A stretch of 37,604 nucleotides of DNA from a virus: the UHGV virus genome UHGV-0126502; one strand, written 5' to 3'. A program made the position numbers and the translations under genes. Every line of letters begins with the position of its first letter. The first letter of the stretch is position 1. This document shows positions 24,891-24,950 of this stretch, piece by piece. The notes below the pieces were generated by a model, which saw only the letters and a list, made by a program, of their open reading frames with translations, did no database searches and was not told where the DNA came from.

Positions 24891-24950
24891 ACAGGTTTAC
24901 TTGTAATTACCTCACAGGCAACCTTGTTTGTCAAATACAGAAGTATCTGT
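24891..24950. promoter_or_regulatory. Tripartite operator with divergent promoters (OR1-3 analogue)
   Basis: Three 14-bp near-palindromes at exactly 23-bp spacing: ACAGGTTTACTTGT (24891-24904), ACAGGCAACCTTGT (24914-24927), ACAGAAGTATCTGT (24937-24950); TTGTCA/TTGACA -35 element at 24928-24933 readable on both strands. Confidence 0.7.

Follow-up and report, generated by a model that had tools for sequence, protein, structure and literature searches.

The window, that is, the whole 37,604-nt (37.6-kb) stretch of DNA analysed here, is an E. coli prophage. Over positions 24640-25990 it is 99.9% identical to NCTC9022 and others, and this segment matches 105 of 5,426 complete E. coli genomes, 26 of them with at least 80% coverage. 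Within the segment lie two divergent genes, and the operator sites sit in the 107-bp gap between them. The Cro-like and CI-like flanks described in the initial annotation are borne out. The features of this part of the locus are as follows, with operators and promoters labelled by the roles proposed below.

24647..24871, minus strand: cro-like gene, 74 aa, with a single HTH_3 domain (open reading frame; same ATG as in the RefSeq homologues)
24891-24904: OR1, ACAGGTTTACTTGT, overlapping the predicted PR start (pattern search)
24906..24911, minus strand: predicted PR -10, GGTAAT, 17 bp from the -35 (read from the sequence)
24914-24927: OR2, ACAGGCAACCTTGT, within the PR spacer and adjoining the PRM -35 (pattern search, 434 OR2 register)
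24928-24934: overlapping -35 hexamers, PRM TTGTCA at 24928-24933 (plus strand) and PR TTGACA at 24934..24929 (minus strand) (sequence and promoter scan)
24937-24950: OR3, ACAGAAGTATCTGT, within the PRM spacer and adjoining the PRM -10 (pattern search, 434 OR3 register)
24951..24956, plus strand: predicted PRM -10, AATCAT (scan hit TTGTCA-17-AATCAT; position of the 434 pRM -10)
24979..25608, plus strand: cI-like repressor gene, 209 aa, with HTH_3 and Peptidase_S24 domains (open reading frame, Pfam)
about 25629..25656, plus strand: intrinsic terminator of cI, conserved across the immunity group

Leftward of cro there is a gene for a 754-aa prim-pol/DUF5906 replication protein, followed by more genes on the same strand, among which a related phage record annotates antitermination protein Q. 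There is no cII-like gene after cro, the prim-pol/DUF5906 gene beginning at 24643, 4 nt before the cro stop (24643-24647). Therefore, the establishment of lysogeny must differ from that in 434 and lambda.

The strict operator pattern, ACAGR-N4-YYTGT (ACAGRNNNNYYTGT), counted on both strands, has 5 matches in the 37.6-kb window where 0.45 would be expected, and a count of 5 was never attained in 100 shuffles. The five matches represent four sites, because OR3 is palindromic and is counted on each strand. With the looser core ACAR-N6-YTGT, no exact sites are found in the 37.6 kb beyond OR1, OR2, OR3 and a distal site at 25722-25735 (OL1; see below). When one mismatch to ACAG-N6-CTGT is allowed, there is no window-wide enrichment (17 matches versus 11.8 expected), and only the stricter core pattern is therefore informative. 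The three 14-bp near-palindromes previously proposed for the intergenic gap are indeed present, and the distances between the centres of OR1 and OR2 and of OR2 and OR3 are 23 and 23 bp exactly, as had been claimed. The left half-site is ACAG in all four sites, while the right half-site is ACAA in OR1, OR2 and OL1 and ACAG in OR3.

Both flanking proteins resemble those of phage 434. The Cro-like protein matches Pfam HTH_3 (E 1.3e-13), with the recognition helix RQQSVQYLES, and its best match among all PDB sequences is 434 Cro (E 2.6e-15), followed by the 434 repressor (5.7e-14). It is a single-domain paralogue, with RQQSVQ in the helix where 434 Cro has KQQSIQ. The CI-like protein matches HTH_3 (9.6e-15) and Peptidase_S24 (2.4e-18), with the recognition helix SQQSIEAIEN. 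Its matches among all PDB sequences are 434 Cro (1.3e-14), lambda CI (3bdn; 1.8e-14) and the 434 repressor (1.1e-12, over residues 3-63, with residues 2-62 of the 434 repressor). The match to full-length lambda CI comes mostly from the C-terminal domain; the N-terminal domain is closest to 434 and P22 c2.

Six CI proteins were aligned, and Q29 Q30 S31, P43 R44, A85-G86, S122 and K159/K160 are invariant among them. The residues aligned with 434 Arg10, Gln17 and Pro42-Arg43, which we take to be DNA contacts in the 434 complex, are likewise invariant across the six. The core of the 434 helix, Gln28-Gln29-Ser30, is kept in both the Cro-like and the CI-like protein. The CI-like protein also keeps the LexA-type Ala-Gly cleavage site and the residues of the Ser/Lys dyad, and it combines the QQS helix-turn-helix N-terminus, the minor-groove Arg43 and the fused S24 domain of a 434-type repressor.

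The annotated 434 genome (GenBank OL657226) was used as the reference for 434, whose structures include 2OR1, 1PER, 1RPE and 3CRO. In the locus coordinates of OL657226, OR1 is at 1411-1424, the pR -10 at 1425-1430, OR2 at 1433-1446, the pRM -35 at 1447-1452 (plus strand), the pR -35 at 1448-1453 (minus strand), OR3 at 1456-1469 and the pRM -10 at 1470-1475. The two arrays may be written as follows.

434: ACAAACTTTCTTGT-ATTTTCAT-ACAATGTATCTTGT-TTGTCAAAT-ACAGTTTTTCTTGT-GAAGAT
window: ACAGGTTTACTTGT-AATTACCTC-ACAGGCAACCTTGT-TTGTCAAAT-ACAGAAGTATCTGT-AATCAT

The order of elements (OR1, PR -10, OR2, overlapping -35 hexamers, OR3, PRM -10) is the same in both. Each has three 14-bp operators with ACA...TGT cores (ACAA-N6-TTGT in 434) lying 22-23 bp apart between cro and cI, and in each the Cro protein and the N-terminal domain of CI are homologous and share the QQS recognition helix. 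The 9-bp spacer between OR2 and OR3, TTGTCAAAT, is identical in the two phages, and OR2 and OR3 are 23 bp apart in both. The initial annotation had described a shared palindromic -35 that reads on both strands. The feature is present, with TTGTCA (plus strand) and TTGACA (minus strand) overlapping with a 1-nt offset inside TTGTCAAAT (24928-24936). Since the 434 record annotates the pRM and pR -35 signals as overlapping in the identical spacer, however, this is a known property of 434, which the window shares at the sequence level. The predicted PR -10, GGTAAT, is weak, with a 4/6 match that lacks the usual A at position 2, and it was not picked up by the promoter consensus scan. GGTAAT at 24911..24906 is nevertheless proposed as the PR -10; the 434 pR has the same 17-bp spacing between -35 and -10.

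The likeness is not complete. The CI of the window is 39% identical overall to that of 434. The left half-sites are ACAA in 434 and ACAG in the window, and 434 Gln33 is replaced by Ala in the CI of the window and by Tyr in its Cro. The closest single site is 434 OR3 (ACAGTTTTTCTTGT), which differs from OR1 of the window at two positions. OR1 and OR2 are 22 bp apart in 434 and 23 bp apart here, with one extra base between OR1 and the PR -10, so the geometry of cooperativity need not equal that of 434. The genes cII, N and hex of 434 are not found in the window, whose backbone, in contrast to that of 434, is a non-lambdoid replication module (prim-pol/DUF5906, DUF2800, DNA polymerase).

The geometry had earlier been likened to that of lambda. 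As far as the general logic of the switch is concerned, this holds: lambda shares the divergent cI and cro, the three operators about 23-24 bp apart, the logic of OR2 and PRM activation, the self-cleaving S24 domain at the C-terminus of CI (3bdn, E 1.8e-14) and an OL that lies distally, at PL. However, lambda operators are 17 bp long, have a different sequence and are spaced at 24/23 bp; the PR and PRM -35 hexamers of lambda do not overlap, and its OR and OL are about 2.4 kb apart. Lambda Cro, unlike the Cro-like protein of the window, is not an HTH_3 paralogue of CI. With 14-bp operators, overlapping -35 hexamers and an N-terminus like those of 434 and P22 c2, the window does not have a lambda-type OR in the strict sense. 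The likeness to lambda is approximate, and 434 is the better model.

Related switches are found by tblastn in Yersinia phage vB_YenM_29.18, Enterobacter phage CobraSix and Klebsiella phage ST16-OXA48phi5.2, whose CI proteins are 54-58% identical to that of the window. They share three ACAG-N6-CTGT sites and the TTGTCAAWT spacer, and they have two exact OL sites 24 bp apart. They differ from the window in having symmetric ACAG/ACAG sites, Trp at helix position 31, an OR1-OR2 distance of 22 bp, and cII after cro. Their switches are uncharacterised and 434-like.

Downstream of cI there is a second group of elements.

25667-25680: candidate OL3, ACAAGTAATTAGGT, 6/8 core positions, strongly conserved in the group; tentative
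25698-25711: candidate OL2, ACCAAAATACCTGT, 7/8 core positions, adjoining the PL -35
25711..25740, plus strand: PL-like early promoter, TTGACA at 25711-25716, 18-bp spacer, TATTTT at 25735-25740
25722-25735: OL1, ACAGGTTTGCTTGT, between the PL -35 and -10 (pattern search)

The PL-like promoter, with 10/12 matches, is the top promoter-like site of the region and is kept in the immunity group. A fourth copy of the operator had been noted at this distal promoter; it is there, but the position given for it, 25723-25736, was 1 bp too high. OL1 differs from OR1 in one central base. It ends at the first base of the PL -10, as candidate OL2 does at the first base of the PL -35. Candidate OL2 is 24 bp upstream of OL1, and candidate OL3 is 31 bp further upstream. 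The putative array thus consists of one exact site in the spacer of a 10/12 promoter and two degenerate partners at 434-like spacing. In 434 oL2 and oL1 overlap the pL -35 and -10, an arrangement that the candidate sites of the window would share, and oL3, oL2 and oL1 are 31 and 23 bp apart (31 and 24 here), whereas OL2 and OL3 of the window are degenerate. All sequences aligned for the immunity group have OL1, with variation at its centre and at position 11 in two members (L012 and L104), and the whole OL/PL block is kept across the group. Two relatives (L002 and L003) carry an exact match, ACAAGAATACCTGT, where candidate OL2 lies in the window, at a distance of 24 bp from OL1. Because of this exact OL2 site in relatives and the conserved OL/PL block, the fourth site is probably OL1 of a three-site OL in which OL2 and OL3 are degenerate.

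Taken together, the locus is best read as a 434-type switch of an E. coli prophage, with the three intergenic sites as OR1-OR2-OR3 and the fourth as OL1; we give this reading a probability of roughly 0.88. The presence and spacing of the sites, their conservation, the homology of the proteins and the way the sites travel with the repressor type (see below) are observed. The binding itself, the order of affinities, the cooperativity, the activation of PRM and the start sites we infer, in the following manner.

Dimers of the 209-aa CI would bind the 14-bp sites through the QQS helix, contacting the outer ACA(G/A) quartets. OR1 is probably the strong site, because its centre is A/T-rich and it is nearly invariant and nearly identical to OL1. 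OR2 is probably weak and dependent on cooperativity, because its centre contains G+C and TGGT replaces TTGT in relatives. In 434, binding to OR2 is 14-fold weaker than to OR1 when each site is on its own fragment, and equal in the intact OR (PMC5977221), and operators with A/T-rich centres bind better by indirect readout (PMC3317979). OR1 would thus help to fill the weaker OR2 cooperatively, and with both occupied the leftward lytic promoter PR would be covered at its start, its -10 and its spacer. PR, which would drive cro, the prim-pol/helicase gene and the late genes, would be repressed in this state. CI at OR2, adjoining the PRM -35, would probably stimulate PRM. It might do so by touching RNA polymerase directly or by freeing PRM from competition with PR, since with overlapping -35 hexamers the polymerase would use only one of the two promoters at a time. 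At high CI concentrations OR3, in the PRM spacer, would also be filled and cI turned off, a negative autoregulation. OL1, aided by the degenerate OL2 and OL3, would block the rightward early promoter at 25711-25740. Upon the SOS response, activated RecA would lead CI to cleave itself at Ala85-Gly86 by means of Ser122 and the Lys dyad residue, and the prophage would be induced. Cro, with the same QQS helix, would then bind the same sites with a different preference and turn PRM off.

Two departures from this scheme concern its wiring. In the first, OR and OL, which are about 800 bp apart, would be looped by CI oligomers, and both repression and the autoregulation of PRM would be tightened as in lambda. 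Operators of the same sequence at both promoters, with OR1 and OL1 only one central base apart, and multi-site arrays at both ends are consistent with such a loop. On the other hand, OL2 and OL3 are degenerate in the window phage. Looping in lambda requires CI octamers, and we know of no established case of such octamers for 434-type repressors. For 933W, a loop mediated by the repressor has been reported to have no role at PRM, according to the title of a work cited in PMC5977221. Looping of OR and OL is pure conjecture, and we consider it possible but unlikely.

In the second, the logic would be purely repressive: CI at OR2 would not be an activator of PRM, which would be a constitutive promoter with an extended -10, subject to autorepression only. 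The promoter scan lends this some weight, because the TG contributed by OR3 precedes AATCAT to form an extended -10, the -35 is a 5/6 match, and AATCAT is a better -10 than GAAGAT of the 434 pRM. A constitutive PRM would also account for the establishment of lysogeny in a phage that lacks CII, and no cII lies between cro and the primase gene, while the lambdoid relatives with 55-58% CI identity have one. Against this, OR2 is in exact 434 register to the PRM -35 and -10, and activation by the 434 repressor from OR2 is known (Bushman and Ptashne 1986, as cited in PMC4848623). Moreover, relief of the competition from the overlapping PR would raise the output of PRM in any case. We regard the purely repressive logic as rather improbable.

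If the sites are operators of the flanking proteins, they may be expected to follow the repressor among relatives, and the initial annotation had named their absence from relatives with the same repressor as evidence against its proposal. To this end 169 loci with CI relatives were collected, comprising annotated phages, 80 loci from species-representative genomes and 80 IMG/VR loci. An xQQ[ST] recognition helix is present in 117 of the 169, and in 114 of these 117 the anchor TTGTCAAWT-ACA is found upstream of cI, giving 55 distinct OR configurations. ACA is kept in 91-100% and TGT in 71-100% (85-100% in OR2 and OR3), and the centres vary freely. The 52 relatives without the QQS helix, which share only the C-terminal domain, have no such sites except for one stray single match. 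The distance between OR1 and OR2 is 22 bp in 43 of the 55 configurations, 23 bp in 10 and 24 bp in 2. The 23/23 spacing is a trait of the immunity group of the window, 434 and most relatives having 22 bp between OR1 and OR2.

This immunity group was defined by the helix SQQSIEAIEN (with one AQQSVEAIEN member, L104) and a CI identity of at least 76%; its 25 loci, from E. coli, Erwinia, Mixta, Izhakiella and uncultured viral contigs, have 15 distinct intergenic sequences. The 60-bp operator block has no indels in the 15 sequences, whereas both flanking leaders have indels. Fourteen of the 15 share the OR1 sequence, if one that has C in place of T at position 11 is included. When the two most distant members are set aside, variation is found at 1 of 24 core and 6 of 18 central positions (Fisher P = 0.03); with all 15 sequences the difference between core and centre gives P = 0.06. 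With sequences so closely related, the group by itself gives only a marginal test, and the strong evidence is the family-wide pattern.

A natural control is found in the heteroimmune phage vB_EcoM-606R2, which agrees with the window at 99.2% identity as far as 24658 and then again starting at 25759. Between these two points it has an unrelated cro/repressor pair and none of the operator sites of the window. Since identity breaks and the sites are absent there, the immunity cassette, operators included, can be placed at 24659-25758. The notion that the palindromes arose by chance or from base composition, or that they bind some factor with no relation to the flanking helix-turn-helix proteins, is effectively refuted by the fivefold occurrence of a pattern expected 0.45 times, with three sites at fixed spacing in one 107-bp gap, by the tracking of the QQS helix across 169 loci, and by the absence of the sites from the heteroimmune cassette of an otherwise 99% identical phage. 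The 606R2 locus has its own repeat, a AATATCCGATAACGCATA-like element plus a ATACGAAAACGGATTAT inverted pair, common to its OR and OL regions (3284-3354 and 4126-4191); these repeats presumably serve as operators for another immunity type, unrelated to that of the window, that is carried by the same backbone.

With the 434-type switch as the preferred reading, the specificity of the group may be considered. A phage homoimmune with 434 would be expected to have ACAA in both outer quartets and Gln33 in the helix; the window has ACAG left half-sites and Ala at the equivalent residue. The comparison of half-sites, which had been suggested as a means of assigning the immunity group, was carried out and would place the window in a distinct ACAG-left group within the 434 family. 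The window phage thus probably belongs to an immunity group distinct from that of 434, with partial cross-recognition possible.

The replacement of Gln33 by Ala alone as the explanation of the change from ACAA to ACAG was considered and rejected. The Izhakiella capsodis locus (L012, 1870-2000) has the identical helix, SQQSIEAIEN, and a CI 76% identical to that of the window, yet it has ACAA in all three sites. A large 'IES' group, which has Ser at position 33 and ACAA operators, also speaks against the explanation. In the Izhakiella locus position 4 is A in all three OR sites, in the manner of a coordinated change. Across the 55 OR configurations, position 4 of the operator tracks residue 31 and not residue 33, being mostly A with Ile or Val and G with Trp or Tyr.

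These traits invite a further, more speculative interpretation, which covers the SQQSIEAIEN helix, the hybrid ACAG/ACAA operators, the 23/23 spacing and the lack of cII. The group would be a naturally occurring variant of the 434 switch, altered in specificity and wiring, in which position 4 is read permissively and lysogeny is established from PRM alone. We hold this to be decidedly doubtful. If true, it would allow partial cross-immunity with 434-like phages, and together with the 55 related OR configurations it would provide a natural series for the co-evolution of helix-turn-helix specificity and operators.

The region into which the PL-like promoter would transcribe contains three further elements.

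25758..25770, plus strand: boxA-like element, CGCTCTTTAACAA, about 12-24 nt into the predicted PL transcript
25985-26554, minus strand: 189-aa open reading frame, phrog_1244, with CxxC...CxxC motifs, between PL and the early genes
26610-26723, plus strand: RprA-like small RNA (Rfam RF00034, 49.1 bits against a gathering threshold of 70, E 1.5e-5, full model)

The boxA-like element, which by the consensus TGCTCTTTAACAA we take to be of the rrn type, contains the only exact occurrence of GCTCTTTAACAA in the window. No N-like gene or boxB hairpin is evident. The homology with the heteroimmune phage resumes at this site (25759), and the boxA-like site therefore looks like a recombination joint of the immunity cassette. 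The non-coding leader that follows, about 230 nt (25759-25990), shows 100% identity between prophages whose immunity cassettes differ; in one phage record a 47-aa 'hypothetical protein' is annotated here on the minus strand. As a structured RNA the PL leader (25747-25990) was rejected, its folding z score of -0.98 not being significant and no Rfam family matching it. At gathering thresholds Rfam has no match in the whole window, and there are no tRNAs. The path of the PL transcript would pass a stem-loop (about 25917-25934), the antisense 189-aa gene and the RprA-like terminator before the early genes from 26746 onward.

The 189-aa open reading frame has no Pfam or PADLOC match. It is present in two of the relatives (L001, which is 606R2, and L002) and absent in three (L003-L005), and because of this presence and absence it looks like a moron at the position of the lambdoid exclusion genes. 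The RprA-like RNA lies between this frame and the rightward early genes. Its 3' half (AAUUGCUGUGUGUAGUCUUUGCCCG...CGGGCUUUUUU) and terminator hairpin are near-identical to the RprA consensus, from which the 5' half diverges; the conserved stretch may be the rpoS-pairing region. Among 5,426 complete E. coli genomes, 156 carry the element without annotating it, 76 of them with a coverage of at least 80%. The element may be a mimic, borne by a prophage, of a core Hfq small RNA, and a literature search for such a prophage-borne RprA mimic found no paper describing one.

A literature search with the exact operator strings gave irrelevant matches only, and RefSeq annotates no regulatory features at the operator region, where existing annotation goes no further than 'LexA family protein' and 'helix-turn-helix protein'. 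The switch of the window is very probably a genuine 434-family CI/Cro operator set and a new immunity variant. Its peculiarities are modest, namely the 23/23 spacing, the lack of cII and a 434-type cassette in a non-lambdoid backbone (prim-pol/DUF5906, DUF2800), and the understanding of such switches is unchanged by it. What is gained is a map of operators, promoters and cassette boundaries (24659-25758) for a prophage present in about 26-105 of 5,426 complete E. coli genomes. More generally, the layout of the 434 OR with its overlapping -35 hexamers serves as a template that is widespread and strongly conserved in Enterobacterales and beyond, and the immunity groups of the 434-like family are assignable from sequence.
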